NCBI RefSeq assembly: GCF_937863155.1
Contig: NZ_CALMFB010000054.1
Location: 29,975-93,974, forward strand
Origin: an uncultured Brevundimonas sp.
GTDB taxonomy: Bacteria; Pseudomonadota; Alphaproteobacteria; Caulobacterales; Caulobacteraceae
Reading direction: 5' to 3'
DNA length: 64,000 nucleotides
Numbering within the stretch: position 1 is the first letter of the stretch; the number at the start of each line of letters is the position of its first letter. Below are positions 18,001-56,471 of the stretch, piece after piece. Both the position numbers and the translations under genes were made by a program. The notes beneath the pieces are model-generated. The model was given only the letters and a program-made list of their open reading frames with translations. It was not told the origin of the DNA and made no database searches.

Positions 18001-18148
18001 CGCCAATTTATTGAAATTGTATCAGAAAATATCGCCACCCCCCTTGGGGGCGGCGCGCAATTCCAAGACTGTAGCGGCGGGTCTCCGGGGCTCGCTCAAG
18101 CACGATTTAGCGAAACGTCGCCGTCTGTTGGCAGACCGACAGCGCCCA

Positions 18149-18460
18149 TCACTGATGCGGGCAGCGCGACGAAATCTTCGTTCGGCTTAGCCAGGTGATC
18201 TGATGAAAGGTGCAACAGGCGATCAATCCCTGCCAGATCGGCCCTGCGATGGCGGGCGAAAGACCGGCCGCCGCCGCCGTCGCGTGAACTTTCTCAAACA
18301 CCTGGGCGACGCGAACCGGGTCGTGAACGGCGTCCGGCAGGCCCTTTATGGCCGCCGCCTGCTCCACCAGCCTCTGCCGTTCCGCCAGCAGCCGGACAAG
18401 CCGGCGATCCACGGCGTCGATCTGAACACGCACGTCGGCCAGGGTGACAGGCGGCGTCAT
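18149..18460 (-). CDS. AroQ/PchB-type chorismate mutase
   Basis: LADVRVQIDAVDRRLVRLLAERQRLVEQAAAIK...HDPVRVAQV; overlaps the ubiV stop. Confidence 0.75.
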   Translation of the reverse strand: MTPPVTLADVRVQIDAVDRRLVRLLAERQRLVEQAAAIKGLPDAVHDPVRVAQVFEKVHATAAAAGLSPAIAGPIWQGLIACCTFHQITWLSRTKISSRCPHQ

Positions 18461-19362
18461 GACGGCACAGGTTCGACGCCGGCCTGGCCGCGCAGATAGC
18501 CGCCGATGAAAGGGGCCGGCGGCTTTGCCTGCGCCACGGCTTCATGCAGGCCTGCGGCGTCCATCCGGCCGTCCAGAAAGCCGCGAAACGCCTCCGCGAC
18601 CTGAGCCATGTCCATATGATGCGGCGACAGGCGAAGGGCCGTGACGCCCGCTGTACGCAGATCGTCGGGCGGAAGATCGGCAAGCTGAACTCCATGCGAC
18701 AGGGTCTGGACGCCGTTCACCGCCAGGAAGGCGCGGCCGTCCAGGGTCCGCAGGTCCATGCCGTCCGGGTCCTGGTCGCAGACGAAACGGCAGGCGTCCT
18801 TGTGCAGGCCGTGGCTGCGGGCATGGTAGCAGCGCCCCGACAGGGCCAGGGGCAGGCGGCCGAAGGCGAACAGCTCGATCTCCAGCCCAGGACAGGCGGC
18901 GGCGATGGCGCCGACAGCCGCCAGCGACAGCTCGACATTGGCGCACAGACGCACGCAGCCGCGCGCGATCAGTTCCTGGGCCGCCCCTTCGTTGTAGATG
19001 TTCAGCAGGGGGCCGGCCACGAACGGGCCGACGCGGTCCTTCAGGGCCGAGACGTCGTTGATCTCGATCAGGGCGTCCGTTTCGGCGGACAGGACCTTGA
19101 TCGCTTTGCGGTCACGCAGCGTCGCCGGCAGGGCCAGGCCCGACCAGACCACCGTCTTGCCCGCCTCGGTCAGTCGTTCTGCGGCTTCGGCCAGCGCATG
19201 ATCGACCAGGGGCGCGCGCTTTCCGCACACCACCTCGCCCAGATAGACGCGGTCCACCGCCGCGCAATCGGCCATGCGGGCGTAGAAATCGCGGATGCGA
19301 TCGGCGGGCCAGTGAAACAGCAAAGGGCCCAGGGCGATCTCGATACGGGTCGGATCGGTCAT
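18457..19362 (-). CDS. ubiV: O2-independent ubiquinone biosynthesis protein UbiV (U32 family)
   Basis: IALGPLLFHW...YLGEVVCGKR; LSGRCYHAR...CRFVC Fe-S cysteines; true start 19362. Confidence 0.9.
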   Translation of the reverse strand: MTDPTRIEIALGPLLFHWPADRIRDFYARMADCAAVDRVYLGEVVCGKRAPLVDHALAEAAERLTEAGKTVVWSGLALPATLRDRKAIKVLSAETDALIEINDVSALKDRVGPFVAGPLLNIYNEGAAQELIARGCVRLCANVELSLAAVGAIAAACPGLEIELFAFGRLPLALSGRCYHARSHGLHKDACRFVCDQDPDGMDLRTLDGRAFLAVNGVQTLSHGVQLADLPPDDLRTAGVTALRLSPHHMDMAQVAEAFRGFLDGRMDAAGLHEAVAQAKPPAPFIGGYLRGQAGVEPVPS

Positions 19363-20351
19363 CGCCACCTCTTGCGATAGGCGCCGGTGGTCTCGCGCCC
19401 GCCCTCGGCCAGGTCGGTCAGCAGATGCTCGTAGGCGTCGGGCGATTCCCCCCGGTCGATGGCGTCGATGGCGGCGCGGAAGGCGGCGGCGACGCGGGCG
19501 ACATAGGCCTTGCCGCGCTGGCGCCCCTCGATCTTGACCGCCGTCACGCCGGCGCGTTTCAGCCCGCCCAGCAGGCTCATGGCGTTCAGGCTGACCGGAT
19601 CCTCGAACAGATAGGACAGGACGCCCCGCGCCTCGAACCGGCCCTTGCACAAGGTGGGGTAGCCCGCCGGGTCGCCGGGGGCGTAGCGATCCATGGCGAA
19701 GCCCGCCAGGCGCGACACCAGGGCGTCTTCCTCTTCGCTGTAGGACACGGCTTCGGGCGGCGAGCAGACGCCGCACAGGTTGGGCGAACGGCCCGCCGCA
19801 TAGGAGGACAGGGCGCACCGTCCCTCGGCCATGACGCACAGGCCGCCGAAGACGAAGGCCTCGGTCTCGACCTCGATCTCGCGCATCAGGGCGGCGATCT
19901 CCTCCACGCTCAGCACACGCGGCAGGACCACACGTTTCACACCATAGGCCTGGGCGTAGAAGGCGATGGCTTCGGGCGATCCGGCCGCGGCCTGAACCGA
20001 CAGATGCAGACGAAGATGCGGCCACGCCTCGCGCGCATAGGCCAGGACGCCCAGATCGGCCACGATCACCGCATCGGCGCCCGAAGCGGCGGCGGCGTCC
20101 AGCGACCGTCGCCAGCGATCGCTGCCGCCCGCCTGGGCGAAGGTGTTCACGGCCAACAACACCCTGGCCCCGTGACGGTGCGCCCAGGCCACGCTGTCCG
20201 ACAGCTCCTGGGGTGAGAAATTCAGGCCGGGGAAATTGCGCGCATTGGTGTCGTCGCGCAGGCCGCAATAGACGCTGTCGGCGCCCGCCTCGATCGCCGC
20301 GCGCAGCATGGCGGGCGACCCGGCCGGACAGACCAGTTCGATCGAACCCAC
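19359..20351 (-). CDS. ubiU: O2-independent ubiquinone biosynthesis protein UbiU (U32 family)
   Basis: ELVCPAG...TNARNFPGLNF; GLCVMAEGRCALSSY...CS; TLCKGRF; KIEGRQR. Confidence 0.92.
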   Translation of the reverse strand: MGSIELVCPAGSPAMLRAAIEAGADSVYCGLRDDTNARNFPGLNFSPQELSDSVAWAHRHGARVLLAVNTFAQAGGSDRWRRSLDAAAASGADAVIVADLGVLAYAREAWPHLRLHLSVQAAAGSPEAIAFYAQAYGVKRVVLPRVLSVEEIAALMREIEVETEAFVFGGLCVMAEGRCALSSYAAGRSPNLCGVCSPPEAVSYSEEEDALVSRLAGFAMDRYAPGDPAGYPTLCKGRFEARGVLSYLFEDPVSLNAMSLLGGLKRAGVTAVKIEGRQRGKAYVARVAAAFRAAIDAIDRGESPDAYEHLLTDLAEGGRETTGAYRKRWR

Positions 20352-20355
20352 GCCC

Positions 20356-20889
20356 TTACCCCTCTCTTGCGCGCAGCCGCGCCAATCCCGCCGACAGCAG
20401 GGCGCCGGTCCAGCGCCGCAGCGGATCCGGCAGGGGTAACAGGTCGGCGGTCGTCAGTTCGGCCGCCTCCAGCGTATTGTGCAGGGCGACCACAGCCTGG
20501 GTGTCGCCGGTGATGCGAATGCGCCGGGCGAAGAAGGCGGCGTCGGCGTCACAGGCGCCGTCGAACAAACCGATCAGAGTGGCCAGAGGCCCCGTGATCC
20601 GCGCGGCGGAGGGCCGCGCCGCATCATGACGCTCGACCTCCACCCGGCCCGCGCCGTGACCCGGACGCAGCCGAAAGGCGACGGGAAAGTCGGACGGGGC
20701 GACCACCAGATCGACGTCATTGGCCACGCCCAGTCGCTCGAACACCTCGGGCCGGCGCCGGCCCAGCGCACGCAGGGCGGCGGTCAGCATCCGTTCCGGT
20801 GGGTGGCGCAGGGTCATCAGCACCGTGACAGCCAGGCGTTCGCCGCGACCGCGCCCGTCAGACTTTGATCGACGCCGCCAGCCGCTCAC
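20356..20889 (-). CDS. ubiT: SCP2-domain accessory factor UbiT
   Basis: RRPEVFERLG...DADAAFFARRIRITGDTQAVVALHNTLE; GTGA overlap with the upstream stop; start uncertain. Confidence 0.82.
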   Translation of the reverse strand: MSGWRRRSKSDGRGRGERLAVTVLMTLRHPPERMLTAALRALGRRRPEVFERLGVANDVDLVVAPSDFPVAFRLRPGHGAGRVEVERHDAARPSAARITGPLATLIGLFDGACDADAAFFARRIRITGDTQAVVALHNTLEAAELTTADLLPLPDPLRRWTGALLSAGLARLRAREG

Positions 20890-22655
20890 GCCGCCGCCTC
20901 CAGGCCGGGGGCGATCTGACGCGCAATCAGATCGGCGAACTCCTGGAACAGGGTGTCGCGCGCGGCGGGGGCCGCCCAATAGGGGGTCATGAAGACGCAT
21001 CGGATCAGCACCAGGCCCGAGGCGTCGACTGTCCCGTTCCATCCCGCGACGTGCCGGGCGATGGCCGCCTTGCTGGTCGCGCCCAGGGTGGTCCGGGACA
21101 CCGAAAAGGTCGGCGACCTGTGAATGTCGTCGAACAGGGCCAGGGTCTGCTGATTGACGACCGACAGAGGCTGTCCCTCGGCCGCGATGCAGAAACAGGC
21201 GATGTTGCTGTCGACCGGGGCCAGGAAACGGGCCTGGGGAACCCGCGATCCGATGGCGGCCTGGAAGGCGCGGCGCACGGCGATCGTCTCGGCCAGGACC
21301 GCGCCCAGGCCCTCGGCGCAGAAGCCCAGGGTGCGCCCGGTCAGCCAGGTCGCCGCCGCCCCCGCCGCCGACCGCGATCCCTCCAGCGTCGAGGACCATT
21401 TGCCGTCGCCCAGCTCGGGGCGGTCCAGATAGGGCGCATCGAAGGTCGACACGGCATAGGCGACCGCATCGCGGGTCAGAAAGGCCCCGCAGGCATAGGG
21501 GGTATAGCCCAGCTTGTGCGGGTCGATGGTCAGGGACTCGGCCCGGCCCATGGCCGCCAGGGCCGTGCGGGTGCGGTCGTCGAAGGCCGCGCCGTCCAGG
21601 TCGATGGCCCGAAGGAAGCCGCCATAGGCCGCGTCCACGTGGCTCCAGACATGCAGGCCGTGTTCGCGCCGCAGGTCGTCCAGACGCGCCTGCCACCGGT
21701 CCATGGGGTCGATCTGGCCCGTCTCGGTCGTCCCGGCCACGGCGACCGTCATCAGGATCGGCCGGGCCTCGTCGCGGGCGCGCTGGATCAGCCGGTCCAG
21801 ATCGTCCAGGTCCATGCGGCCTTGGTCGTCCAGGGCGACGCTCCACAGCGAATCCTCGCCCAGCCCGAAGATGTTGACCGCCTTGCGCCACGAATAATGC
21901 GCCGCGCCGGGCGCCAGCAGCACCGGCCCGCGCCACGGCTGGGGCGTCAGACGGTCGATCCGTCGCCAGATGTCCATGGGGTTGCCCGCCGCCGCGCGTT
22001 CCGGGCGCAGGATGTCCTCGCTCAGGTCGTGCGCGGCCCACAGGCGGCGGAACGCGCCCCATCCCATGTGGGCGTCGGCGAACACGTCCAGCGGGCGGCC
22101 CTTCGTCTCGGCCAGGTGAAGCGCCAGTCCCAGCCACAGGTCCATGCGGTGCCGCGCGCGCCAGACGGCCTCCAGATTGGCGACCGTGCCGCCCGAGGTG
22201 AAATGCCCCTGGGCCGCGTCGGGATCGTAGCCCAGCATGCGCGCCAGCATGGCGATGGCCTCGGTCTCGATCACCGTGCCGACGCGGCTGGCCTCGCGCG
22301 AGGTGTTGTTGGGATTGTGCAGCATGGCCGCCAGCCAGCCCATCAGGGCCGGGGTCGAGATGTCGGCCTTCATGTGGCTGATGTACCGGGGGGTGCAGGT
22401 GGGCGTCTCGCTGGTCATCGCCCGGCACAGGGCGTCCAGTTCCACCGCCAGCTTGTCGCGCTGGGCGCCGGCGGCCGGGGAAACCGTCGTGGTGATGGCC
22501 GCGTCCTGGGGGAACAGGCTGCGCCGCCAGTTGAACCAGGCGTCCAGGACATGCCCCAGCGACGTCCGCATCCAGGCTTCGTTCTCGCCGTGCGGGCCTG
22601 GAAAATAGGCGCCGGCCAGATCCAGCGGCGAAGGGGCGGCGGGCGATGCGGTCAT
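20886..22655 (-). CDS. Group II PLP-dependent amino-acid decarboxylase
   Basis: RYISHM...NPNN..REAS, GHFTSGGTVAN, HYSWRK, AGTTETGQID, HVDAAYGG, SLTIDPHKLGY (PLP lysine). Confidence 0.88.
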   Translation of the reverse strand: MTASPAAPSPLDLAGAYFPGPHGENEAWMRTSLGHVLDAWFNWRRSLFPQDAAITTTVSPAAGAQRDKLAVELDALCRAMTSETPTCTPRYISHMKADISTPALMGWLAAMLHNPNNTSREASRVGTVIETEAIAMLARMLGYDPDAAQGHFTSGGTVANLEAVWRARHRMDLWLGLALHLAETKGRPLDVFADAHMGWGAFRRLWAAHDLSEDILRPERAAAGNPMDIWRRIDRLTPQPWRGPVLLAPGAAHYSWRKAVNIFGLGEDSLWSVALDDQGRMDLDDLDRLIQRARDEARPILMTVAVAGTTETGQIDPMDRWQARLDDLRREHGLHVWSHVDAAYGGFLRAIDLDGAAFDDRTRTALAAMGRAESLTIDPHKLGYTPYACGAFLTRDAVAYAVSTFDAPYLDRPELGDGKWSSTLEGSRSAAGAAATWLTGRTLGFCAEGLGAVLAETIAVRRAFQAAIGSRVPQARFLAPVDSNIACFCIAAEGQPLSVVNQQTLALFDDIHRSPTFSVSRTTLGATSKAAIARHVAGWNGTVDASGLVLIRCVFMTPYWAAPAARDTLFQEFADLIARQIAPGLEAAA

Positions 22656-22687
22656 GGGCGGTGCGTTCTCTGGCGTCGGTTGGGGGA

Positions 22688-23131
22688 TCACTGGGGCCGG
22701 GTGACGATCCAGGCGCCGACGCCGGTCAGGATCGGCGCAACACCGGCCAGGACCAGGACGGGCAGGCCCAGCCCCGCCATCGTCAGCCAGCTGCACGCCA
22801 GGCTGGCGACCGCGATCTGTTTGGCGCGGCGCGGAATGGCGCGACGGGCGCGCCAGTCGGCGATCAGCGGCCCCAGCCAGCGGTGGCCGCGCAGCCAGGC
22901 CTCCAGGCGGGGCGAAGACCGGGCGAAGGCCCAGACGGCGACCAGGGCGAACGGCGTCGCCGGCAACAGCGGCAGCATCACCCCCAGGATCGCCAGGGCG
23001 GCGGCGATCCAGCCCAGCAGCAACAGCATCACCCGGCCGCTGTGCGCCTGGCGCGCGCCGGGCCGACAATGACACTCGCTAAAGCCGCACAGGTCGTAGG
23101 GCGCGTCGCGTTCAACGGAGTCGTGGCTCAT
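22688..23131 (-). CDS. YbaN/DUF454 inner membrane protein
   Basis: GVMLPLLPATPFALVA.WAFARSSPRLEAWL..HRWLGPLIADW; start 23131 or 23029. Confidence 0.85.
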   Translation of the reverse strand: MSHDSVERDAPYDLCGFSECHCRPGARQAHSGRVMLLLLGWIAAALAILGVMLPLLPATPFALVAVWAFARSSPRLEAWLRGHRWLGPLIADWRARRAIPRRAKQIAVASLACSWLTMAGLGLPVLVLAGVAPILTGVGAWIVTRPQ

Positions 23132-23168
23132 CACCGCCAAAGGATCAGGCCGCGCGCGCCGGAACGCT

Positions 23169-23182: not shown

Positions 23183-23304
23183 TTGCGACTGCGTGAAAGG
23201 GTCGCAGGACGGCTGGCGAAAGGCCGCGCCGTCTCGTACGATTCCCGACGGAGGCCGTTTTGCAGATCACCGCTCTAACAGGCGTCCGGCATGAGTGGAT
23301 ACGC

Positions 23305-24777
23305 ATGCTGGATCGAAGGCGGCCCTATGCGGCTCTGGCCGTGGCGGGCGTCGGCGCGCTTCTGGGCCTGCTCGTGCGGCTGGCGATGTCGGGCTATCTG
23401 GCCGACCGGGTCGCCTTTCTGTTCTTCATTCCGGGGATGCTGGCGGCGGCGGCGCTGGGCGGCGTCTTTCCGGGATTCGCCGCCACGATCCTGGGCGCCG
23501 CCGGGGCCGCCTTCATCACCTGGCGGATGGGATCGCATGGGGCGGGCGACGCGGCGGCGGTGCTGGTCTTCGTCATGCTGGGCATGGGCATCAGCGCGGC
23601 CGGCGAGGTGTTCCAGAGACTGCGCGACCAGGGGCTGGCGGCCCGGCGCGATCTGCACGCGAGAGAGGCGCACCTGCGTTCGATCCTGGACACGGTGCCG
23701 GACGCCATGGTCGTGATCGACGAGCGCGGCCTGATGCAGTCCTTCAGCCCCGCCGCCGAACGGATGTTCGGCTGGACCGCGGCGGAAATGATCGGCCGCA
23801 ACGTCAAGGTGCTGATGCCAGACCCGTACCGCACGGCGCACGACGGTTTCCTGACGCGTTATCTGACCACGGGCGAGCGCCGCATCATCGGCATCGGGCG
23901 CGTGGTGGTGGGCGAACGCAAGGACGGCTCGACCTTCCCGCTGGAGCTGGCGGTCGGCGAAATGGTGTCCGAGGGCCAGCGCTTCTTCACCGGCTTCATC
24001 CGCGACCTGACCGAACGGCAGAAGACCGAGACGCGGCTGCAGGAACTGCAGACCGAGCTGATCCATATCTCGCGCCTGACGGCCATGGGGGAAATGGCCT
24101 CGGCCCTGGCGCACGAACTGAACCAGCCCCTGTCGGCCACGGCCAACTATCTGAAGGGGTCCGTCAGGTTGCTGGACCAGGCCGACCTGCCCCGCGACCG
24201 GCTGGAGGACGCCCTGACCAAGGCCGGCGAACAGGTGCTGCGCGCCGGCGACATCATCCGGCGGCTGCGCGATTTCGTCTCGCGCGGCGAAACCGAACGG
24301 CGTCAGGAGAGCCTGGGCAAGCTGATCGAGGAAGCCGCCGCCCTGGCTCTTGTCGGGGCCAAGGATCATGGCGTGCACGTGCGGTTCGCGCTGGACCCCT
24401 CGGTGGATCGGGCGCTGGTCGATCGCGTGCAGATCCAGCAGGTGATGCTGAACCTGATCCGCAACGCCATCGAGGCCATGGACGAGGTGCAGGGGCCACG
24501 GTCCCTGTCGATCCATCTGGAACCCGGACCGCCCGGAATGGCGCAGGTCATGGTAGCCGATACCGGCCCCGGCGTCAGCGAGGCCGTGACCGCCCAGCTG
24601 TTCCAGCCCTTCATCACCAGCAAGCCGACCGGCATGGGCGTCGGGCTGTCGATCAGCCGCACCATAATCGAGGCCCACGGTGGGCGAATCTGGGTCGAGA
24701 CGCCTAGTGAAGGCGGGGCGCGTTTCTGCTTCACCCTGCCGATGAGCCGAGAGGAGGATTTGGGCGATGACCGATAG
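23305..24777 (+). CDS. fixL: Heme-PAS oxygen sensor kinase FixL
   Basis: N-terminal TMs; PAS ...[37 protein letters not shown]; H-box LAHELNQPL; [18 protein letters not shown]. Confidence 0.93.
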
Positions 24778-25381
24778 GCCGGTGATCCATGTCGTCGACG
24801 ACGATCCGGCCATGCGCGACTCGCTGGCCTTCCTGCTGGAAGCCGCCGGACTGCAACCCCGGCTTTATGAATCCGGTCTGGCGCTGTTGGGGTCCGTGGC
24901 CGAAGGCGAGCTTGAGGACGGGTGCATCCTGACCGACGTCCGCATGCCGGGCATGGACGGGCTGGATCTGGTGCGACGCCTGATCCAGCGCGGCGTCCCC
25001 CAGCCGATCATCGTCATGACGGGCCATGCCGACGTGCCCCTGGCGGTCGAGGCGATGCGGGCGGGGGTGGCGGATTTCATCGAGAAGCCGTTCGACGACG
25101 TGACGCTGATGGCCGCCATCGAGCGAGCCATGAACGGTGTCGGCGCGCCGCCTCCCACCCGCGTCGATCAGGACGTGCGCGCGCGCCTGGACGCCCTGTC
25201 GTCGCGCGAACGTCAGGTGCTGGACGGACTGGTGGCCGGTCAGGCGAACAAGGCCATCGCCTTCGACCTGGGCATCAGCGCACGCACGGTCGAAGTCTAT
25301 CGCGCCAATGTCATGACCAAGATGCAGGCCCGCAGCCTGCCCGAGCTGATCCGCATGGCCTTGCTGGGCCGCCGGTCATAG
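24767..25381 (+). CDS. fixJ: Response regulator FixJ
   Basis: REC plus LuxR HTH; [11 protein letters not shown]; [19 protein letters not shown]. Confidence 0.93.
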
Positions 25382-25765
25382 GCGCGGCTGCAGCGCCCGC
25401 CGCACCGCCGTCAGCAGGGCGTCGCTGAGCAGGGGCTTTTCGACGATCGGCGTCCCGCAGGCCGCCGCCCGCGCGCGCAGGGCCGGACCGGGATTGCTGG
25501 TCACCAATATGGCCGGAAGACGCACCGCCGCCGCGCGAAGACGGCCCAGCAGGCTGAGCCCGTCCATGCCGGGCAGGTGATGGTCCAGCACCAGACAGCC
25601 GTGTTCGGGAAGCGCCCCCGCCGCCAGCAGCGTCTCGGCGTCGCCATAGGCGCGGACATCCAGACCCTCCAGCCCGAACGAAAACGCCAGCGCGTGCGCC
25701 AGGGCTTCGTCGTCATCCACCAGGATGACGATGGGACGCACGGGCACGGGCGCGGGCGCGCTCAT
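25376..25765 (-). CDS. Single-domain receiver protein (FixT-like)
   Basis: LVDDDE...CLVLDHHLPGMDG...IVEKP; ATGA-coupled to fixK. Confidence 0.8.
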   Translation of the reverse strand: MSAPAPVPVRPIVILVDDDEALAHALAFSFGLEGLDVRAYGDAETLLAAGALPEHGCLVLDHHLPGMDGLSLLGRLRAAAVRLPAILVTSNPGPALRARAAACGTPIVEKPLLSDALLTAVRRALQPRL

Positions 25766-26457
25766 TCCCGCAGCGCTTCGAGACGGTCGCGACGCAGCAG
25801 GCGCACATGCCGGCTGGACCGCGCCGCGATCAGCCCCTCGGCCTGCAACTGCGACAGGGTGCGCGAGACGGTGTGAATGGTCAGGCCCAGATGGTCGGCG
25901 ATGTCCTGGCGGCTCATGGGCAGGTCGATCACATCGGCCGCCTCGACCCGGTCGGCATAGTCCAGCAGGAAGGTGGCGACCCGCTCGGTCGCGCCCTGGC
26001 GCGCCAGGATCATGGCGTGGTCCTCGCTGCGCTGGAAGGCGCGCAGCGACATCCGCCACAGCGCGCGCGTCAGCCCGCCATCGATCGCCGCCAGGGCCGA
26101 CAGCCGGGCGCGACGCAGCACCGAGGCCGTCACCGGCCCCAGCGCCTGGGCATGGGTGCGATAGTCGACGCTGGCCTCCAGCCCCAGGAAATCACCCGGC
26201 AGATAGAAGCCCGTCACCTGCCGGCGCCCATCGGCGTACAGCCGATAGGTGATCACCGCGCCCTCGCTGATGCGATAGACGAAGGACGCCGGCTCGCCGG
26301 GGCTGAAGATATCCTCGCCGGCGGCGAAATGCGCGTGGGCGGCCGAACGATCCATGAAGGCCGCCGCCAGCTCGCACGGCTTGTGCGCAGCATTGATGCT
26401 GGGCGCGGCGGGTGGCGCATAGGTCGGACGGTAAGCGACGGATTGAACGCCAGCCAT
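25762..26457 (-). CDS. fixK: Crp/Fnr regulator, FixK-like (no N-terminal Cys cluster)
   Basis: DGRRQVTGFYLPGDFLG; LPMSRQDIADHLGLTIHTVSR; adjacent to fixLJ. Confidence 0.8.
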   Translation of the reverse strand: MAGVQSVAYRPTYAPPAAPSINAAHKPCELAAAFMDRSAAHAHFAAGEDIFSPGEPASFVYRISEGAVITYRLYADGRRQVTGFYLPGDFLGLEASVDYRTHAQALGPVTASVLRRARLSALAAIDGGLTRALWRMSLRAFQRSEDHAMILARQGATERVATFLLDYADRVEAADVIDLPMSRQDIADHLGLTIHTVSRTLSQLQAEGLIAARSSRHVRLLRRDRLEALRE

Positions 26458-30537: not shown

Positions 30538-30553
30538 CCGCCTGTCCCCATGC

Positions 30554-44984: not shown

Positions 44985-45003
44985 GGGCAGAAGCGTCCTT
45001 GCG

Positions 45004-46630: not shown

Positions 46631-47416
46631 ATGACCATGCGAACGTCTGATCTGAACCGGATCAAGGCGCTGCCGTTGTTCGCCAGCCTGCCCGACGAGA
46701 CGTTCCGCGACGCGACCGCCGGATCGTTTCTGCAGCGTTTCCCCGCCGGCACCACCTTGCTGATGGAAGGGGATCCGGTCGACTTCCTGTATGTGCTGCT
46801 GGACGGCATCGTCGAACTTCAGGGGTCTTGGAAGGACAAGGAAACCACCCTGGCCGTGCTGCGGCCCGTGTCGACCTTCATCCTGGCGGCGGTCATGCTG
46901 GACGCCCCGGCCTTGATGTCGGCGCGGACGCTGGAGCGGTCCGAGATTCTGATGCTGTCGGGCGAGGCCCTGCGACGCACGGCGCGGATGGACGCCGGCT
47001 TCGGCTATGCCGTCGCGCGCGAACTGGCGGGTTGCTATCGGGGTCTGGTGCGGTCGGTGAAGAACCAGAAGCTGCGCGGCGGGACCGAGCGGCTGGCCAA
47101 CTATCTGCTGACCCAGCGGGTGCGCCAGAACGGTCGCGCGACCATCGTCCTACCGCACGAAAAGCGGGTGCTGGCCTCTTTGCTGGGCATGACGCCCGAG
47201 AACCTGTCGCGGGCCTTTGCGGGGCTGGCCGGGCACGGCGTGTCGGTCAATGGTCCCGAAGTGACCATCGCCAAGCCCCAGTTGCTGGAGCGACTGGCCC
47301 GTCCCTCGCCGCTGATCGACAATCATATGCCGCCGCCCAAGCAACCGCTGGGCAAGGCCGAAATCGAAAGCTGGCCGCCGGACCCCAAACAGCCGGTCGC
47401 GCCCTTCGGCGGATAA
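46631..47416 (+). CDS. Crp/Fnr regulator (FtrB/NarR/DNR-like)
   Basis: cNMP-like domain; ERLANYLL; HEKRVLASLLGMTPENLSRAF; divergent from the nar operon. Confidence 0.85.
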   Translation: MTMRTSDLNRIKALPLFASLPDETFRDATAGSFLQRFPAGTTLLMEGDPVDFLYVLLDGIVELQGSWKDKETTLAVLRPVSTFILAAVMLDAPALMSARTLERSEILMLSGEALRRTARMDAGFGYAVARELAGCYRGLVRSVKNQKLRGGTERLANYLLTQRVRQNGRATIVLPHEKRVLASLLGMTPENLSRAFAGLAGHGVSVNGPEVTIAKPQLLERLARPSPLIDNHMPPPKQPLGKAEIESWPPDPKQPVAPFGG

Positions 47417-48424: not shown

Positions 48425-48430
48425 TTGGAA

Positions 48431-48546
48431 GCTCCTTTCCAAACACGGGAGGCGAAGCGGTTTCCCGCCGCGCCCTCGGCCCCTTTCGGAGCCCGGCCGG
48501 CCGACCCTGGCGCATGGCGTTAGGTCGGACGGCTCGGAGCGAACTC
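48431..48546 (-). ncRNA. Moco RNA motif (molybdenum cofactor riboswitch)
   Basis: CUCCGAGC...ACCUAA...GGGAAACC...GCCUCCCGUGUUUGGAAAGGAG immediately 5' of moaA, covering its SD. Confidence 0.85.
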
Positions 48547-48602: not shown

Positions 48603-48616
48603 TTGATGAAGATCAA
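48603..48616. promoter_or_regulatory. Perfect FNR box upstream of the Moco riboswitch/moaA
   Basis: (GC)TTGAT-GAAG-ATCAA(GC); overlaps the nnrS stop. Confidence 0.85.
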
Positions 48617-49806
48617 GCCGGGCGCAGATCGGGCCGGGGTTTCAGCAGCATGGGGCCATAGATCAGGGCGAACCCGCCAAAGGCCGCGCTCCACAGCACG
48701 GTCGAGACGATCAGGCCGGGGACGTGCAGATCGGGAACCAGGCCGGCCGTCACGCGCGCCATCGCCGCCAGATTGACCGCGACATAAAGCAGGCTGGTGC
48801 CCCAACCTGCGGCCAGGGGGCGCCCCGTATGCCCGCGGCTGGCGCGGGTGGTCATGGCCAGGATCATCACCCCCATGGCGCCGGCGGTCAGGGCGTGTAT
48901 CCCGGCCGAAATGGGAACGCTTGCCCCCACCGCCGACAGGCCCATCAGGATCAACGCCACCGGCAGCCACAGATATCCCATGTGCAGGATCAGCACGAGC
49001 GGCTCGGCCCCCGTGCGCCACCCGCGCCAGCGCGCCAGCCGCACCAGATGCAGCGCACCGACCCCCGCCAGCAGGGCGCCGACCGCCCCCGCTTCGGGCG
49101 ACATGACCCAGGCCCCCAGGGTCACGACCGTGGCGATCAGCACGGCCTGGTCGAACCGACCGGCCGGCGGCGCGGGCAGAGGACCGCCCCTGCGCACCAG
49201 CCAGTTGCGCGTGAAACTGGGCGTCACCCGCCCGCCGATCAGCGCCAGCAGCATGGCCACCGCCGCCAGGGCCAGGCGCAGGAACAGGTCCAGACCGGCC
49301 GGCTCGACGCGCAGATGAACCCCGACATCGGCCAGGGCGAACAGGCTGGCCAGGACGGCGACCGGCAGGTTGCGCCAGTTGCGCCCGGCCAGAACCTCGC
49401 GCCAGATCACGCCCGCGAAGACGACCAGGAAGACCGCGTCGATGCTGGCGACCCAGGCGGGCAGGCCCAGCATCGGCGCCGCCAGCATGGCCGCCCGTCC
49501 CGCCAGCCACAGCAGAAACAGCCCCGCCAGCGGCGCCCCGACCACCGGCAGACGCCCGGTCCAGTTCGGCACGGCAGTCAGCAAGAAACCCGCCACGATG
49601 GCCCCGACGAAGCCGAACAGCATCTCGTGAATGTGCCAGTCCAGCCCGATCCCCGCCTGGGCCAGGGCGCCGCCATGGGCATAGGCGGTCAGCCAGATCG
49701 GCGTGGCCACGGCGGCCCAGACGGCGCCGAACAGGAAGAAGGGCCGGAAGCCGAAACAGAACAAGGCGGGGCCGCGATAGGCCCGCATGGCGGCGGCGGT
49801 GGACAT
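48613..49806 (-). CDS. nnrS: NnrS family membrane protein
   Basis: GFRPFFL, WHIHEMLFG...GFLLTAVPNWTG, GGRVTPSFTRNWL, HALTAG, RASRGHTGRPL. Confidence 0.93.
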   Translation of the reverse strand: MSTAAAMRAYRGPALFCFGFRPFFLFGAVWAAVATPIWLTAYAHGGALAQAGIGLDWHIHEMLFGFVGAIVAGFLLTAVPNWTGRLPVVGAPLAGLFLLWLAGRAAMLAAPMLGLPAWVASIDAVFLVVFAGVIWREVLAGRNWRNLPVAVLASLFALADVGVHLRVEPAGLDLFLRLALAAVAMLLALIGGRVTPSFTRNWLVRRGGPLPAPPAGRFDQAVLIATVVTLGAWVMSPEAGAVGALLAGVGALHLVRLARWRGWRTGAEPLVLILHMGYLWLPVALILMGLSAVGASVPISAGIHALTAGAMGVMILAMTTRASRGHTGRPLAAGWGTSLLYVAVNLAAMARVTAGLVPDLHVPGLIVSTVLWSAAFGGFALIYGPMLLKPRPDLRPA

Positions 49807-49885: not shown

Positions 49886-50533
49886 TCAGACGGTCGCAGG
49901 CCGGCGCAGACGGTCCAGCGCCGCCAGGGCGTCGGGCGTGCAGCCCTGGGGCCGGAACGCCTGATGCGTCCAGCCGACGACGCCCATCTGGTCCAACTCG
50001 GCCTGCATCCGCGCCAGGGCCGCCGCGTCCAGCAGGCCGGGATGAACCGTGGTGCGGACCTGATAGGCCACGCCGCTGGCCAGCAGCAGACGCAGGCTGT
50101 CGCGCGCCCGGCGGCCGCTGCCGGGAACAGCGGTGGTGTCGGCATAGGCGTCGAACGGCGCCTTCACGTCGAAGCCGACCCAGTCGACCAGAGGCAGCAC
50201 CGCCGCCAGGCGCGCGGGATAGGGGCCGCCGGTATGCAGGCCGATGCGAAAGCCCATCTCGCGCACCTGGCGCATGGCGACGGGCAAGGCGGTCTGAAGC
50301 GTCGGCTCGCCGCCCGAAAACACCACCGCGTCCAGCAGGCCGCGCCGCCCCGACAGAAAGGCCAGCGCCGCCTGCCAGTCCAGACCCGTTTCCGCGCGTG
50401 GCGGGATCAGGTGCGGGTTGTGGCAATAGCCGCAGCTCCAGGGACAGCCCTGAAGAAACAGGGTCGCCACCAGTTCGCCGGGCCAGTCGCACAGCGACAG
50501 CCGCTCCAGCCCGCCGATGCGGATCTCAGCCAA
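49886..50533 (-). CDS. nrdG: Class III RNR activating radical SAM enzyme
   Basis: DWPGELVATLFLQGCPWSCGYCHNP, AVVFSGGEPTLQ. Confidence 0.92.
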   Translation of the reverse strand: MAEIRIGGLERLSLCDWPGELVATLFLQGCPWSCGYCHNPHLIPPRAETGLDWQAALAFLSGRRGLLDAVVFSGGEPTLQTALPVAMRQVREMGFRIGLHTGGPYPARLAAVLPLVDWVGFDVKAPFDAYADTTAVPGSGRRARDSLRLLLASGVAYQVRTTVHPGLLDAAALARMQAELDQMGVVGWTHQAFRPQGCTPDALAALDRLRRPATV

Positions 50534-50731: not shown

Positions 50732-52507
50732 TCAGGCTTGGGCGGCGGCCAGCCGCTTTTGGGACAGGCGTTCCTCGTCGCAGCGCGGACAGAAGGCGTG
50801 CTCGCCCTCCAGGTATCCGTGCGTCGGGCAGACCGAGAAGGTCGGGGTGATGGTGATGTAGGGCAGGCCGAACCGGGTCAGCGCCCGCTGGACCAGACGG
50901 CGACACGCCTCGGTCGAGGACAGTCGCGTGCCCATGTACAGATGCAGCACCGTGCCGCCGGTGTATTTCCGCTGCAGCACCTCTTGCCGCTCCAGCGCCT
51001 CGAACGGATCGTCGGTGAAGGCCACCGGCAGCTGGCTGGAGTTGGTGTAATAGGGCTGGTCGTCGGTCCCGGCCTGCAGGATGTCGGGGAAGCGTTTGCG
51101 GTCTTCCTTGGCGAAGCGATAGGTCGTGCCCTCGGCCGGCGTGGCTTCCAGATTGTACATGTGGCCGGTCGCGGCCTGGTATTCGACGATGCGCGCGCGC
51201 ACGTGATCCAGCAGACGCACCGCGAAGGCGTGGCCCCAGTCGGTGGTGATGTCGTGGGCGTCGTCGGTGAAGTTGCGGATCATCTCGTTGACCCCGTTCA
51301 CCCCCAGGGTCGAGAAGTGGTTTCTCAGCGTGCCCAGATAGCGTTTCGTATAGGGGAACAGGCCGTCGTCCATCAGCCGCTGGATCACGCCCCGCTTGAT
51401 CTCCAGACTGTCGCGGCCCAGGTCCATCAGCGCATCCAGCCGCGCCAGCAGCCCCGCCTCGTCCCCTTTGTAAAGGTACCCCAGGCGCGCGCAGTTCAGG
51501 GTGACCACGCCCAGGGATCCGGTCTGCTCGGCGCTGCCGAACAAGCCGTTGCCGCGTTTCAGCAGCTCGGTCAGGTCCAGCTGCAGCCGACAGCACATGG
51601 ACCGCACCATGTTGGGCTTCAGGTCCGAGTTCACGAAATTCTGGAAATAGGGCAGGCCGTATTTGGCCGTCATCTCGAACAGTCGTTCGGCGTTCTCGCT
51701 CTCCCAGGGGAAGTCGGGCGTGATGTTGTAGGTGGGGATGGGAAAGGTGAAGACCCGGCCCTTTTCGTCGCCCTTGCACATCACCTCGATGTAGGCGCGG
51801 TTGATCATGTCCATCTCGGCCTGAAGATCGCCGTAGGTGAAGTCGGCGGCCTCTCCGCCGATGATCGGGATCTCGTCGCGCAGATCTTCGGGACAAACCC
51901 AGTCGAAGGTCAGGTTGGTGAAGGGCGTCTGGGTGCCCCAGCGCGAGGGGACGTTCAGGTTGAAGATCAGCTCCTGAATATACTGGCGCACCTCGGCATA
52001 GGTCAGTCCGCCCTTGCGGATGAACGGCGCCATATAGGTGTCGAACGAGCTGAAGGCCTGGGCGCCGGCCCATTCGTTCTGAAGCGTGCCCAGGAAGTTG
52101 ACGATCTGGCCGATGGCGCTGGACATGTGGCGCGGCGGGCCGGATTCGACCTTGCCCGGCACGCCGTTGAACCCCTCGGTCAGCAGGGTGCGCAGCGACC
52201 AGCCGGCGCAATAACCCGCCAGCATGTCCAGGTCGTGGATATGCAGGTCGCCCTCGCGGTGCGCCCGCCCGACCGCCGCCGGATAGACCTGGGACAGCCA
52301 GTAGTTGGCGATGACCTTGCCCGAGACGTTCAGGATCAGCCCGCCCAGCGAATAGCCCTGGTTGGCGTTGGCGTTCACCCGCCAGTCGGCCCGCATCAGA
52401 TATTCGTTGATCGAGGACGTCACATCGACGGTGACGTCCCGTTCCGGCCCGGCCAGGGCGAAGCCCAGGTCGGGAGCCGCGGGAGCAAGAACGGTATGTT
52501 TCGTCAT
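50732..52507 (-). CDS. nrdD: Class III ribonucleoside-triphosphate reductase catalytic subunit (no ATP cone, no glycyl-radical loop)
   Basis: HIHDL...GYCAGWS, FTFPIPT, RSMCCRL, EATPAEG, YYTNS, CPTHG...CPRC followed by a stop. Confidence 0.92.
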   Translation of the reverse strand: MTKHTVLAPAAPDLGFALAGPERDVTVDVTSSINEYLMRADWRVNANANQGYSLGGLILNVSGKVIANYWLSQVYPAAVGRAHREGDLHIHDLDMLAGYCAGWSLRTLLTEGFNGVPGKVESGPPRHMSSAIGQIVNFLGTLQNEWAGAQAFSSFDTYMAPFIRKGGLTYAEVRQYIQELIFNLNVPSRWGTQTPFTNLTFDWVCPEDLRDEIPIIGGEAADFTYGDLQAEMDMINRAYIEVMCKGDEKGRVFTFPIPTYNITPDFPWESENAERLFEMTAKYGLPYFQNFVNSDLKPNMVRSMCCRLQLDLTELLKRGNGLFGSAEQTGSLGVVTLNCARLGYLYKGDEAGLLARLDALMDLGRDSLEIKRGVIQRLMDDGLFPYTKRYLGTLRNHFSTLGVNGVNEMIRNFTDDAHDITTDWGHAFAVRLLDHVRARIVEYQAATGHMYNLEATPAEGTTYRFAKEDRKRFPDILQAGTDDQPYYTNSSQLPVAFTDDPFEALERQEVLQRKYTGGTVLHLYMGTRLSSTEACRRLVQRALTRFGLPYITITPTFSVCPTHGYLEGEHAFCPRCDEERLSQKRLAAAQA

Positions 52508-52650
52508 GACGCGCATCCTGGCGATGGGACGGGCCGTCTGGCGGCCGGAACGAAACGCTAGGTGATTCGGTGCGGCGCCCCGGCCTGCGCGTCGCCGCGC
52601 CCTCTGCCGACGAAGGTTTGTCGCCTGAAGACGGACCATCAAGGTTCGCC

Positions 52651-52664
52651 TTGACCGCCATCAA
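52651..52664. promoter_or_regulatory. FNR-type box between divergent nrdD and ric
   Basis: TTGAC-CGCC-ATCAA. Confidence 0.75.
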
Positions 52665-52718: not shown

Positions 52719-53222
52719 ATGACCCTGGAAGCCACAGCGCCGGACCGACCGGACACGATGTCCGAAGCGTCGATGCCGACGCCGGCGCTGATCGCGCACA
52801 TCCTGGAACGCTATCATCAGACCCATAGGCGCGAGCTGCCCGAACTGATCGAACTGGCGCGCAAGGTCGAACGCGTCCACCGCCGGCATCCGCAGGCGCC
52901 GCTGGGGATGGGCGACCTGCTGGCCCTGATCGCGGACGATCTGGAAATGCACCAGCAGAAGGAGGAGCAGATTCTGTTCCCGATGATGCTGAACGCGGCC
53001 GGTCCGATGGTGCATCACCCCATCGCCCGCATGATGATCGAGCACGAGGACGTCGAGGCCCAGCTGGCGGTGCTGGACGAGATGAGCGACGGCCTGACCC
53101 CGCCCGCCAACGCCTGCGGTTCGTGGCGCAGGCTGTACGAAGGATGTCGGAAATTCCGCGAAGACCTGCGCGCTCACATCCGCATCGAGGACACGGTTCT
53201 GTTCCCGCGTTTCCTCGATTGA
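52719..53222 (+). CDS. Ric/YtfE-like di-iron hemerythrin protein (no N-terminal ScdA domain)
   Basis: LIAHILERYHQTHRRELP, HQQKEEQILFP, MMIEHE, HIRIED.VLFP. Confidence 0.85.
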   Translation: MTLEATAPDRPDTMSEASMPTPALIAHILERYHQTHRRELPELIELARKVERVHRRHPQAPLGMGDLLALIADDLEMHQQKEEQILFPMMLNAAGPMVHHPIARMMIEHEDVEAQLAVLDEMSDGLTPPANACGSWRRLYEGCRKFREDLRAHIRIEDTVLFPRFLD

Positions 53223-53307: not shown

Positions 53308-54504
53308 TTAAAGGGCGAGCACTTCGACCCTCTCGCCCGCCCCGGCTCCGGAGTCTCCGGCGCGGCGGCGGATCAGGACATCGCTGTCGGCCAGTGTCTT
53401 CTGGGCGCCCGAATCCTGATTGCTCGCCGGCATGACCCGGCCATCGGCCAGGCGCCGTCCACGCAGGAATGTCTCGCGCTCGCCGGTCGCCGGGACATCG
53501 CCCGCCAGTTCGGCCCAGGCCCAGGCCAGGGCGGTGCGCGGCTCGCCGCCCGCCAGGCCGTGCAAAAGCGGGGCCAGAAACAGCCGCGCCGTCACCAGGG
53601 CCGAGGTCGGATTGCCCGGCAGGCCGACCACCAGCCGCCCCCCTGCCCGGCCGATCCACACCGGCTTGCCCGGCTTGATGGCGACCTTGGAGAAGACCAG
53701 GTCCAGACCGGACGGCCCGAACATGGCCCGCGCGTGATCGCGTTCCCCCACCGAGGCGCCGCCGGTCACCACCACCACATCGGCCAGCGACAGGGCCTGG
53801 GCCGCGACGGCTTCCAGGGCGGCGGGATCGTCGGGCGCGCGGCGACGGCCCACGACCTCGGCGCCCCATTGGCGAGCCAGGGCCATGACCCCGAACGACA
53901 CGCTTTCGGGAATGGCGCCCAGCGTCTGGCGGGCCCTGCCCGGTTCGGCCAGTTCGTCGCCGGTGCCCACGACCATCAGACGGGGGCGGCGCACCACATT
54001 CACCCGATCTTGGTCGGCCGAGGCGGCGGCGACCATTGCCTGGGGCGTCAGCGTCGCGCCGGCTTTCAACAGCACATCCCCAGCCCGGAAGTCCGAACCG
54101 CGCTCGCGCACATGGCGGCCCTTGCCCGGCGCGGTCGAAAAGACCGCGTGACCGTCATCCTGGGTCACCTGTTCCTGCACCACGACCCGGTCGGCCCCCT
54201 CGGGCGTCGGGGCGCCGGTGAAGATGCGTGCGCAGGTTCCCGGAAGAAGAGGCGCAGGATCGGCGCGCCCGGCGTAGATCGTATCGACGATCGGCAGCCG
54301 CGCCGGCAGGACCGCCAGATCGGCGTCCCGGACCGCATAGCCGTCCATGGCCGAAACCGCGCGCCACGGTGCATCCGCGAACGCCGTCACGGGGGCGGCC
54401 AGCACCCGGCCGCAGGCGTCGGCCAGAAGCGCATCTTCGGCCTCCAGCGGTTGCGCCAGCCCCAGCACCAGAGCGGCGGCGTCATCGAAATCGATCATGG
54501 CCAA
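53308..54504 (-). CDS. moeA: Molybdopterin molybdotransferase
   Basis: [43 protein letters not shown]. Confidence 0.95.
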
Positions 54505-54986
54505 ACCTCATCCGGCGCCCGCCATTCGCCCGACCGGCCGCCGGACTTCAGCACCAGCCGCACCTGATCCAGACGCATGGCGCGGTCCACGGCTTTCAGC
54601 ATGTCGTACAGGGTCAGGCCCGCGACCGAGGCGGCCGTCAGGGCCTCCATCTCGACCCCCGTGACGCCCACGGTGACCGTCTCCGCCTCGATGCGGAAAC
54701 CGGGCAGGTCGCGGTCGGGCGTGATCGTGACCGCCGCCTTGGACAACGGCAGGGGATGACACAGGGGGATCAGGTCGGCGGTGCGCTTGGCCGCCATAAC
54801 GCCCGCCAGCTCGGCGGTCTGTATCACCGCCCCCTTGGGCGCGCGGCCTTCCAGAACCAGGGCCAGGGTCTCGGGGCGGCAATGCAGATCGGCGCGGGCG
54901 ACGGCGCGGCGCGCGCTGGGCGCCTTGGCCGAGACATCGACCATCCGCGCCCGCCCCTCGGTGTCCAGATGCGTCAGGCCGCTCAT
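54495..54986 (-). CDS. moaC: cPMP synthase
   Basis: [47 protein letters not shown]. Confidence 0.96.
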
Positions 54987-55519
54987 GGGCAGATGCCCCG
55001 ACAGCGCGGGATCTGGCCAACCAGCGAACAGGGGCGGAAGCGGCTGTCCAGTTCGGCGTCCAGCACCAGATCCCAGGCGTCGCGACAGGCGCCGGTCGAA
55101 CCGGGCACGCAGAAGATGAAGGTCTCGCCCGCCTGGCCGGCCAGGGCCCGTGATTGCAGGGTGGCGACGCCGACGGTGGTCTGGCTGGCCTGATGGAACA
55201 CCACCGAAAAGCCGTCCATCACCCGGTCCAGCAGCGGGCGCACCGCCTCGGGCGTCACATCACGCGGGGCGAACCCCGTGCCGCCGGTGGTCAGGATCAC
55301 ATCCACGCCCGGATCGGCGATCCAGTCGCGCAGCCGGGCCTGGATGGCCGGAACCTCGTCCTTGACGATGGCGCGGTCGGCCAGGGCATGGCCCGCCCCC
55401 GTCAGCCGGTCGATCAGCAGACCGCCCGAGGTGTCGGTGCTTTCGTCCCGCGTGTCCGAAATCGTCATCACCGCGATGTTCAGCGGCAGGAAGTCAAAGC
55501 GGTCGTCGATGCCGGCCAT
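54983..55519 (-). CDS. moaB: Molybdenum cofactor biosynthesis protein B
   Basis: [44 protein letters not shown]. Confidence 0.93.
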
Positions 55520-55520
55520 G

Positions 55521-55991
55521 TCAGTCGCTCCAGCGGGCCAGCGCGGCCCCATCTTGCTCAGTGGGTTCGATCCAGCGGCCGCCATCGGGGCCGCTTTCGT
55601 GTTTCCAGAACACCGCCTCGCTCTTGAGCCGGTCCATCAGGTAATCGGCCGCCTGGAAGGCCTCGCGCCGGTGCGGCGATGCGGCGGCGGCGAAGACGAT
55701 GGTGTCGCCCGGCGCCATGCAGCCACAGCGATGCACCACATAGACCGCCGTGACGGGGAACCGGTCCAGCGCATCCTGGGCGATCCGCTGCAAAGACTGT
55801 TCGGTCAGGCGCGGATGCCAGTCCAGCCGCAGTTCATCGACGCGCGCGCCATCCTTGGCCCGGTCACGCGCCAGTCCGGTGAAGGCGACGATGGCCCCAT
55901 CGACCCCGCGCGCGGCGCAGGTCTGGGTGAAGTCGTTCAGTTCGTCGCCCGCATCCAGAAAGCGGTGCTCCAGCCTGGAAACCGCCGCCAT
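55521..55991 (-). CDS. moaE: Molybdopterin synthase catalytic subunit
   Basis: GAIVAFTG.AR, VVHRCG, HRREAFQAADYLMDRLKSEAVFWKHE. Confidence 0.93.
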   Translation of the reverse strand: MAAVSRLEHRFLDAGDELNDFTQTCAARGVDGAIVAFTGLARDRAKDGARVDELRLDWHPRLTEQSLQRIAQDALDRFPVTAVYVVHRCGCMAPGDTIVFAAAASPHRREAFQAADYLMDRLKSEAVFWKHESGPDGGRWIEPTEQDGAALARWSD

Positions 55992-55992
55992 C

Positions 55993-56277
55993 TCAGCCCC
56001 CCGAAAAGGTCGAGAAAAACAGGACGGTCTGGCCCGGCTTCACCGTGGCGCTGTCGGCAAACACCTGGTCGTCGACGCCGCCGCGTACGGAGGGGTCCAG
56101 CAGGATTTCACCGCCTTCGCCGGCCAGGCTCTGCGCTAGCCGCTGCCGCAGGGCGCCCAGGGTCAGCCCCTGGGCGGGCGCCGCGCAAAGCTGTTCGGCG
56201 CCGAAGACATCGGACGGGCGACCAAAGAACTGGACCCGGATGCCCGGCCCCGCCTGTTCCGTTTCCGACTTGCGCAT
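55993..56277 (-). CDS. moaD: Molybdopterin synthase sulfur carrier
   Basis: Ubiquitin-like; VQFFG; C-terminal FSGG. Confidence 0.88.
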   Translation of the reverse strand: MRKSETEQAGPGIRVQFFGRPSDVFGAEQLCAAPAQGLTLGALRQRLAQSLAGEGGEILLDPSVRGGVDDQVFADSATVKPGQTVLFFSTFSGG

Positions 56278-56340
56278 AGCGACGCCCCTGATCTGGTCGA
56301 TCCTTGCTGGACCGGCTTGTATCGGGTTTGCCGCACGGCC

Positions 56341-56358
56341 TTTTGCGCCACCGCAAAA
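56341..56358. promoter_or_regulatory. Crp/Fnr-spaced palindrome upstream of moaDEBC-moeA
   Basis: TTTTGCG-CCAC-CGCAAAA. Confidence 0.55.
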
Positions 56359-56471
56359 TCAGGTGCGCTAAATTGGCGCCGCCCCTGTGGGCGGGCCCAG
56401 CGTCGCCAGGGTGCATTTGGGCTGGATTGGCGATTATGGGGGGCAGCGCTGTCAGGTCAGACGCTCATTCT

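Follow-up and report, generated by a model that had tools for sequence, protein, structure and literature searches.

A Brevundimonas supercluster for anaerobic nitrate respiration beside tRNA-Ser, probably a mosaic of modules exchanged between species

How did a bacterium of a mostly aerobic genus come to hold, in one contiguous block beside a tRNA-Ser gene, the genes for nitrate respiration together with those for making its cofactor, quinone and DNA precursors without oxygen? The block in question lies in a window of 64,000 nucleotides (C54:29975-93974; contig NZ_CALMFB010000054.1 of assembly GCF_937863155.1) from a 2.79-Mb draft genome with 68.6% GC, which was assigned to Brevundimonas and is labeled G000 here; relatives and contigs carry G and C labels of the same kind. 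Positions 18,149-56,240 of the window hold a run of 39 genes with almost no gaps (95% coding and 4.6% intergenic). A preliminary description of the same DNA had regarded this run as a self-contained, portable anaerobiosis kit of about 38 kb in a lineage usually described as aerobic. The latter point held in part, as the genus goes by the description 'aerobic or facultative anaerobic' in the literature, and a Brevundimonas strain with nitrate-reduction genes has been obtained under strict anaerobiosis (PMC6687913). No publication on this Brevundimonas cluster was found in the literature. We consider it likely that the block is a chromosomal accessory supercluster for anaerobic nitrate respiration, an old resident of mosaic make-up whose modules have been exchanged between species, most likely via recombination.

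Distribution and phylogeny of the cluster

The distribution was surveyed in 151 Brevundimonas species genomes. narG was detected in 26 of them, placing the cluster in 17% of the genus, or about one species in six. ubiU was present in 25 genomes (20 of these also with narG), nrdD in three, every one with narG, and fixL in 55. Seven genomes (G064, G072, G160, G066, G102, G008 and G118) shared a canonical order of ~31 kb at differing sites. It runs from a gene for a pyridoxal phosphate (PLP)-dependent decarboxylase (PLPdc) through moaDEBC-moeA, ytfE, a 3-kb slot carrying the class II ribonucleotide reductase (RNR) gene nrdJ, ubiTUV with a chorismate mutase (CM) gene, nnrS, modCBA, moaA and ftrB to narK1K2GHJI, ppiC, an outer membrane protein gene, hemerythrin, carbonic anhydrase and mobA. 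A second module, fixJL ... nnrS-PLPdc-ubiTUV-CM, often accompanied by NirK, was found in two genomes without narG (G089 and G098) and also in G033. The closest equivalent of the G000 block was a composite of ~40 kb in G164, located on contigs C90 and C52 that are apparently joined at fixJ. Its first half is ordered moaDEBC-moeA, ytfE, nnrS, moaA, ftrB, nar ... mobA, fixJL, and its second half modE-modABC, pseudoazurin-fixK, hemN, ubiTUV-CM, PLPdc, nrdJ, tRNA-Ser(CGA). G022 contained an equivalent kit including nrdDG, spread across about 60 kb. A second NarG type, ~69% identical to that of the window, was located at G033:C181 and G096:C232 within a shorter, different nar-moa arrangement.

The RpoB tree paired G000 with G015 (97% identity, support 99), the remaining congeners being 91-93% identical. 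In the NarG tree, G015 grouped with G158, G134 and G118, and G008 and G022 fell into a second subclade. The approximately unbiased (AU) test rejected the grouping of G000 with G015 on the NarG data (p = 5e-5) and that of G015 with G158 on the RpoB data (p = 5e-40). The ratio of NarG to RpoB distance was 4.5 for G000 and G015, and ranged from 0.12 (G064-G160) to 18 (G066-G102). At the lower end, NarG of G064 was almost identical to that of G160 (0.6% apart, against 4.7% for the RpoB protein), and G064:C81:9792-35299 aligned with G160:C1:2187346-2212884 over 25.5 kb at 94.6% nucleotide identity, reaching the contig end; this similarity indicates a recent transfer. At the upper end, G066 and G102 were 0.3% apart in RpoB versus 5.4% in NarG, and their clusters occupy different loci (that of G102 at tRNA-Ser(CGA)), which points to independent acquisition or replacement. 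The core genes of G008 and G022 were far apart, yet these genomes reached 91-96% in several cluster proteins, among them NarG, NarH, NarI and carbonic anhydrase. The G000 cluster proteins were equidistant from those of G015, G008 and G022 (~50-65% for the faster-evolving ones).

The quinone genes followed a different course. UbiU and UbiV formed two deep clades cutting across those of NarG, with G000 placed beside G022, G164 and the genomes carrying the fix-ubi module, and the UbiU data rejected the NarG grouping (AU test, p = 3e-58). The conflict of the NarG and UbiU trees with RpoB and with each other argues for horizontal movement of modules between members of the genus and for a mosaic G000 copy. 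The gene-tree incongruence that the preliminary description had proposed to look for was thus found, with AU p values from 5e-5 to 3e-58. Horizontal exchange of cluster modules within Brevundimonas is well supported by these comparisons. Judged from its best NarG identity (89%) and native composition, the G000 copy is old as well as mosaic. Its parts would be a nar-moa-mod module, a fix-ubi module, and nrdDG at the place where relatives have nrdJ; in other Brevundimonas these modules are separate or differently ordered, and they have probably been exchanged repeatedly between species.

Genomic site and competing histories

ARAGORN detected a single tRNA in the window, tRNA-Ser(GGA) at 17911..18000 on the plus strand, which forms the left border of the block. 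As the preliminary description had stated, a short AT-rich stretch (~35 nt) follows directly after the tRNA end at 18000. The arrangement flgH-DUF885-msrA-tRNA-Ser(GGA) was kept in G015, G072, G066, G008 and G064, with different downstream DNA in each. The canonical cluster of G064 begins 490 nt past this tRNA, and the cluster of the sister species G015 is inverted and located 27 kb away from it. G102 and G164 harbor different cluster versions at one tRNA-Ser(CGA)-nrtR site. Four clusters therefore abut tRNA-Ser genes, at two loci, and the abutting gene varies: CM2 in G000, PLPdc in G064 and G102, and nrdJ in G164. Under the favored reading, DNA adjacent to tRNA-Ser genes would repeatedly serve as a place of landing or rearrangement.

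To the right of the block, the genes for an AraC regulator, an autotransporter, an extracytoplasmic function (ECF) sigma factor and a Ser/Thr kinase had no counterpart near the locus in relatives, and synteny with G015 returned only near C54:101 kb, ~7 kb past the window end. No clean empty site was found: each relative has other DNA past the tRNA, and in all 11 relatives checked the right-side genes map to different contigs or to positions hundreds of kb distant. No insertion borders can be drawn.

Signs of mobility were also searched for. Scans of all open reading frames (ORFs) detected no integrase, excisionase or transposase in the block or its right flank to C54:101 kb, and no integrase or transposase in the 27-kb variable stretch of G015 or where the cluster meets the tRNA in G064, G102 and G164. 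Conjugation or secretion genes were absent in and beside the block. When up to 3 mismatches were allowed, the tRNA itself was the sole match to its 3' end in the window, and no att-like repeat of this end was found in 18 cluster loci of relatives. The preliminary description had likewise seen neither an integrase nor a second att copy. The GC content of the block (~0.69 versus 0.686 for the genome) and its tetranucleotide distance (0.062, compared with 0.069 +/- 0.029 for random genome segments) were ordinary, and in both measures the whole block and seven sub-modules were within the genome's own spread. The compositional check proposed earlier gave a native profile.

These observations bear on whether the block is a single integrative island of ~38 kb, inserted at the tRNA-Ser 3' end and moving as a unit, with its integrase lost or acting in trans. 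The start of the block 1 nt past the tRNA, the cluster of G064 at the same gene, the site shared by G102 and G164, and the nearly identical composite gene set of the non-sister species G164 would all suit such an island, as would the patchy distribution and the incongruent trees. We regard it as unlikely, because the machinery and scars are missing (neither genes for integrase, excisionase or transposase nor genes for conjugation at the block, likewise at the tRNA-proximal ends in G064, G102, G164 and G015, and no att-like repeat in the window or the 18 loci), the composition is native, an empty site with the right flank of the window was seen in no relative, and the gene abutting the tRNA differs. 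Moreover, the nar and ubi parts differ in phylogeny. The UbiU data leave at least two modules with different histories, and the earlier idea of one discrete portable element was not borne out, although its other half, a coherent functional kit, agrees with the shared FNR/FixK-type boxes and with the presence of genes for an O2-independent RNR and of hemN in the clusters of relatives. A bolder version, in which a portable 'anaerobiosis cassette' targets tRNA-Ser genes by means of a recombinase encoded elsewhere or unrecognised, and in which the PLP enzyme and CM are unrecognised parts of O2-independent ubiquinone synthesis, seems doubtful to us. If it were true, one transfer of ~40 kb (nar, molybdenum cofactor synthesis, Mo uptake, ubiTUV with CM, O2-independent RNR, hemN and fixLJK) would suffice to convert a Brevundimonas that is strictly aerobic into a facultative anaerobe able to respire nitrate.

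The opposite extreme is a cluster ancestral in Brevundimonas, or even in Caulobacterales, that was inherited purely vertically and lost in most lineages, with rearrangements explaining the differences in order and site. Among named genomes, the nearest NarG was that of a Brevundimonas metagenome-assembled genome (MAG; 85%), followed by Hyphomonas/Hyphomonadaceae (79-81%), and type-1 NarG of Brevundimonas was monophyletic and sister to the latter. The strongly kept gene order, the native composition, and the agreement of the NarG subclades G072/G066/G102 and G082/G078/G099/G160 with RpoB clades also accord with vertical descent. A purely vertical history is nevertheless contradicted by the AU tests, in which the NarG and RpoB data each reject the grouping of the other (p 5e-5 to 5e-40), by the long G064/G160 alignment, and by the distance ratios, including that of G066 and G102 with their clusters at different loci; we judge it very improbable. 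In addition, the sister species G015 holds a G158-like cluster, and the second NarG type (G033 and G096) clusters with Sphingomonas NarG. The preliminary description had set its proposal against a block that is genus-wide, syntenic and vertically inherited; the one observed is confined to a sixth of the genus, sits at different sites, and has NarG and RpoB trees that disagree.

We therefore favor the old mosaic built by exchange between species. As the block is without integration or transfer genes, the exchange most likely occurred via recombination after DNA transfer. Several points weigh against this interpretation. The recurrent adjacency to tRNA-Ser hints at site-specific integration and is mechanistically unaccounted for, and the monophyly of type-1 NarG with a Hyphomonadaceae sister would accommodate a large share of vertical descent. 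The species tree consists of RpoB plus a few flank genes, some of the AU-tested clades were named after the trees were seen, and many of the relatives' assemblies are drafts or MAGs, so that absences in the incomplete ones are soft. On the functional side, we deduce growth without oxygen, the binding of FixK and the operon layout from family roles and promoter boxes, and FixL and FixK fall short of the NCBIfam equivalog cut-offs, though each model is the best hit by far.

Gene content and predicted regulation

As the high GC content makes naive ORF lists unreliable, reading frames were picked by third-position GC, and gene names were taken from NCBIfam and Pfam. Coordinates below refer to the window, and genes are on the minus strand unless marked (+). 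The gene classes named in the preliminary description (oxygen sensing, nitrate, molybdenum, molybdenum cofactor, quinone, deoxynucleoside triphosphates (dNTPs) and nitrosative stress) were all encountered at their places; the inventory was correct because most proteins exceeded curated cut-offs and FixL and FixK were clear best hits. It is extended here by CM_2, the PLP enzyme, pseudoazurin, a TonB-dependent receptor, beta-carbonic anhydrase, PpiC and an outer-membrane barrel.

The respiratory core is one predicted operon with two NarK-family genes, in which NarG, NarH, NarJ and NarI all exceeded their equivalog cut-offs. It comprises narK1 (45004-46362), narK2 (43590-45173, upstream of narG), narG (39855-43586; 2128 bits, cut-off 1084), narH (38335-39858; 973 bits, cut-off 524), narJ (37617-38321; 103 bits, cut-off 59) and narI (36868-37605; 257 bits, cut-off 106). 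These are followed by genes for the PpiC foldase (35747-36868) and a putative outer-membrane barrel (34509-35744), and the operon tail encodes hemerythrin (33884-34501), beta-carbonic anhydrase (33267-33887) and MobA (32674-33264). The barrel protein had no match in Pfam, NCBIfam or PDB; with its signal peptide and ...SLEHSF terminus, it looks like an outer-membrane beta-barrel. Its gene was kept after ppiC in the nar tail of most relatives and absent in G164, and the product may be a nitrate/nitrite porin.

Molybdenum uptake is represented by modE (29743-30609), modA (28420-29214), modB (27725-28423) and modC (27106-27735), with ModA and ModB over the curated cut-offs, and a gene for a TonB-dependent receptor (30554-32617) lies next to modE. 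Between modE and modA, a 175-aa ORF (29204-29731) showed a weak Oxidored_molyb-like match (E 0.002), and it was kept in G164 and G158. Cofactor synthesis is encoded by moaA (47432-48442), moeA (53308-54504), moaC (54495-54986), moaB (54983-55585), moaE (55521-55991) and moaD (55993-56240); MoaA, MoaC and MoaB were over the curated cut-offs, and MoaD gave a weak ThiS match.

The oxygen-sensing genes are fixL (23260-24777, +; best hit with 576 bits, below the cut-off of 850), fixJ (24767-25381, +; 291 bits, cut-off 255), fixT (25376-25759; receiver domain only) and fixK (25762-26457; best with the Caulobacter-type model, 217 bits, below the cut-off of 300). A second Crp/Fnr-type activator, FtrB (46631..47416, +), passed its curated cut-offs as FixJ did (354 versus 211 and 324 versus 300 bits). 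FixL contains the stretch HDGFLTRY...RKDGSTFP, which we take to be the heme-PAS motif. Both fixT and mobA are in minus-strand frames that simple ORF lists hide.

Boxes of the FNR/FixK type were enriched in the block. The palindrome TTGAT-N4-ATCAA with at most one mismatch occurred four times against 0.5 expected. Ten TTG-N8-CAA boxes were found, at 5 times the genome density, and eight of them were intergenic although intergenic DNA makes up 4.6% of the bases (binomial p 8e-10). They precede the PLP-decarboxylase-ubiTUV-CM operon (divergent from fixL), pseudoazurin, moaA and nnrS. Two boxes, at 46433 and 46545, are in the divergent gap ahead of narK1 and ftrB, one (52651-52664) separates the divergent nrdD and ytfE, and another (56343) lies ahead of moaD. 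A perfect TTGAT-N4-ATCAA box was located at 48603-48616 in the moaA/nnrS stretch. This pattern supports a reading of the block operons as one regulon of the FixK/FtrB type, with binding predicted from the boxes.

On the basis of these family assignments, the following scheme is proposed. Under falling O2, the heme-PAS protein FixL would phosphorylate FixJ, which would turn on fixK and the feedback inhibitor gene fixT. FixK and FtrB would bind the TTG-N8-CAA boxes ahead of almost every operon of the block. NarK1 and NarK2 would swap nitrate and nitrite, and NarGHI, assembled by NarJ, would oxidize ubiquinol and reduce nitrate, with the bis-molybdopterin guanine dinucleotide (bis-MGD) cofactor presumably provided by ModABC/ModE together with MoaABCDE-MoeA-MobA. 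Ubiquinone would be made without O2 by UbiT, UbiU and UbiV, the chorismate mutase probably giving prephenate as the oxygen donor, and dNTPs would be made without O2 by NrdD and NrdG. NnrS (48613-49806), the di-iron Fe-S repair protein YtfE/RIC (52719..53222, +, divergent from nrdD) and hemerythrin would handle NO and nitrite damage.

The ubi operon starts with the gene for a 729-aa PLP-dependent decarboxylase of the tyrosine/aromatic-amino-acid type (20886..23075). The solved structures nearest to this enzyme are tyrosine/aromatic-amino-acid decarboxylases (6ebn, 5hsi and 7cwx), and its gene was present in all cluster versions, beside ubiT or moaD. Next come ubiT (20356-20883; SCP2 match, E 1e-8), ubiU (19359-20351; NF047963, 505 bits against a cut-off of 440), ubiV (18457-19362; Peptidase_U32 match, E 7e-11) and a stand-alone CM_2 chorismate mutase gene (18149-18460). 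This ubiTUV-CM order was kept in relatives. CM_2 directly follows ubiV in both ubiTUV lineages of Brevundimonas, the adjacency being found in the window and in G064, G072, G160, G066, G102, G008, G118, G089, G098, G033 and G164. Prephenate was recently proposed as the oxygen donor for the hydroxylation by UbiU/UbiV (PMC10990095), and in the text of that paper no term for gene neighborhood or co-occurrence was found. CM_2 beside ubiTUV likely supplies prephenate, and a chorismate mutase tied to ubiTUV would constitute independent genomic support for prephenate-dependent hydroxylation.

The class III anaerobic RNR is encoded by nrdD (50732-52642; NF006126, 1044 bits versus 548) and nrdG (49886-50533; TIGR02495, 186 bits versus 131). 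NrdD identity was 80-83% within the genus and at most 78% elsewhere in the class. In G000, nrdDG occupies the nnrS-ytfE stretch, where canonical relatives have ubiTUV-CM2 and the B12-dependent class II nrdJ. The latter lies inside the relatives' clusters (G160:C1:2194537-2196192, G102:C2:250343-251998, G015:C5:42502-44130 and others), and the G000 genome is without nrdJ. This is a non-orthologous swap within the cluster, the RNR slot taking class II or class III; as an experiment of nature, it indicates that the kit requires an O2-independent RNR. A contig break seems to divide the class I RNR large-subunit gene nrdA of G000 (C32:7407-8156 and C49:42-851).

The block is not fully self-contained, contrary to the preliminary description, since hemN of G000 sits on contig C61 and a search of this genome found no NirK. 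In G160, G072, G008, G164, G089, G022 and G033, hemN was located after mobA or in the fix-ubi part. Owing to the absence of NirK, respiration probably ends at nitrite, and NirK-based denitrification was rejected for G000. For the same reason the pseudoazurin (26560-27024) is an orphan; its counterpart shares a module with NirK in G022, G089 and G033, and it is probably the remnant of a lost nirK arrangement. The pseudoazurin gene carries its own FNR-type box.

Beyond the block, positions 56472..64000 contain accessory DNA peculiar to G000 and outside the anaerobic kit, which encodes the AraC regulator, a 1608-aa autotransporter and a PAN/crystallin protein. The autotransporter (57722-62548, +) has TIG, He_PIG, Big_9 and cadherin-like repeats, and its gene contains internal DNA repeats of 267 nt and 800 nt. 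Outside the window, a Ser/Thr kinase-tetratricopeptide repeat (TPR) gene at G000:C54:95295-97679 (-) appears split into adjacent ORFs of 159 and 634 aa, and may be a frameshift or a pseudogene.

Taken as a package, the cluster suggests that an anaerobic lifestyle comes to a genus that is mostly aerobic through co-regulated genes that go beyond the respiratory enzyme alone and cover hidden O2 dependencies in cofactor, quinone, heme and DNA-precursor synthesis. Its patchy, exchanged distribution may help explain the presence of Brevundimonas in anoxic subsurface and wastewater habitats, and a defined fragment of ~40 kb is available for gain-of-function tests.

Comparison with known systems

The block resembles tRNA-linked islands in its adjacency to a tRNA 3' end, variable locus, patchy distribution and incongruent trees; it differs from them in having no integrase, direct repeats or compositional deviation, and in consisting of modules of separate history. 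In common with the UbiUVT pathway (PMC10470549), it has a UbiU over the equivalog cut-off, a U32-type UbiV and an SCP2-type UbiT, and the genes co-occur with those of anaerobic respiration. The Brevundimonas operon, however, adds CM_2 after ubiV and the tyrosine-decarboxylase-like gene before ubiT.

The regulators correspond to the FixLJ-FixK-FixT-FtrB network of Caulobacter crescentus, an obligate aerobe in which it serves microaerobic respiration and heme synthesis (PMC7078487; bioRxiv 10.1101/2024.02.05.579008). The regulator set is the same, with a receiver-only FixT and FNR-type boxes ahead of target operons; FtrB and FixJ pass their cut-offs, and the best FixK model is that of Caulobacter. 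In contrast to that network, the Brevundimonas set is embedded in a nitrate-respiration cluster and is patchy, as the fixL count indicates, and its FixT is without the 4-Cys Fe-S motif, which the cited work on the Fix network termed unique to Caulobacter.

The conjugative element for nitrate respiration (NCE) in Thermus thermophilus is located in a mobile region, and its transfer has been demonstrated (PMC5748679, PMC6282519). In both cases, a strain-variable, horizontally spread cluster provides an otherwise aerobic bacterium with anaerobic nitrate respiration, and a nar operon lies beside its own oxygen-responsive regulators. Unlike the NCE, the Brevundimonas block is without transfer or integration genes and employs FixLJ-FixK/FtrB in place of DnrST. 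To the nitrate respiration of the NCE it adds synthesis of the molybdenum cofactor, uptake of Mo, a route to ubiquinone that needs no O2, and an O2-independent RNR.

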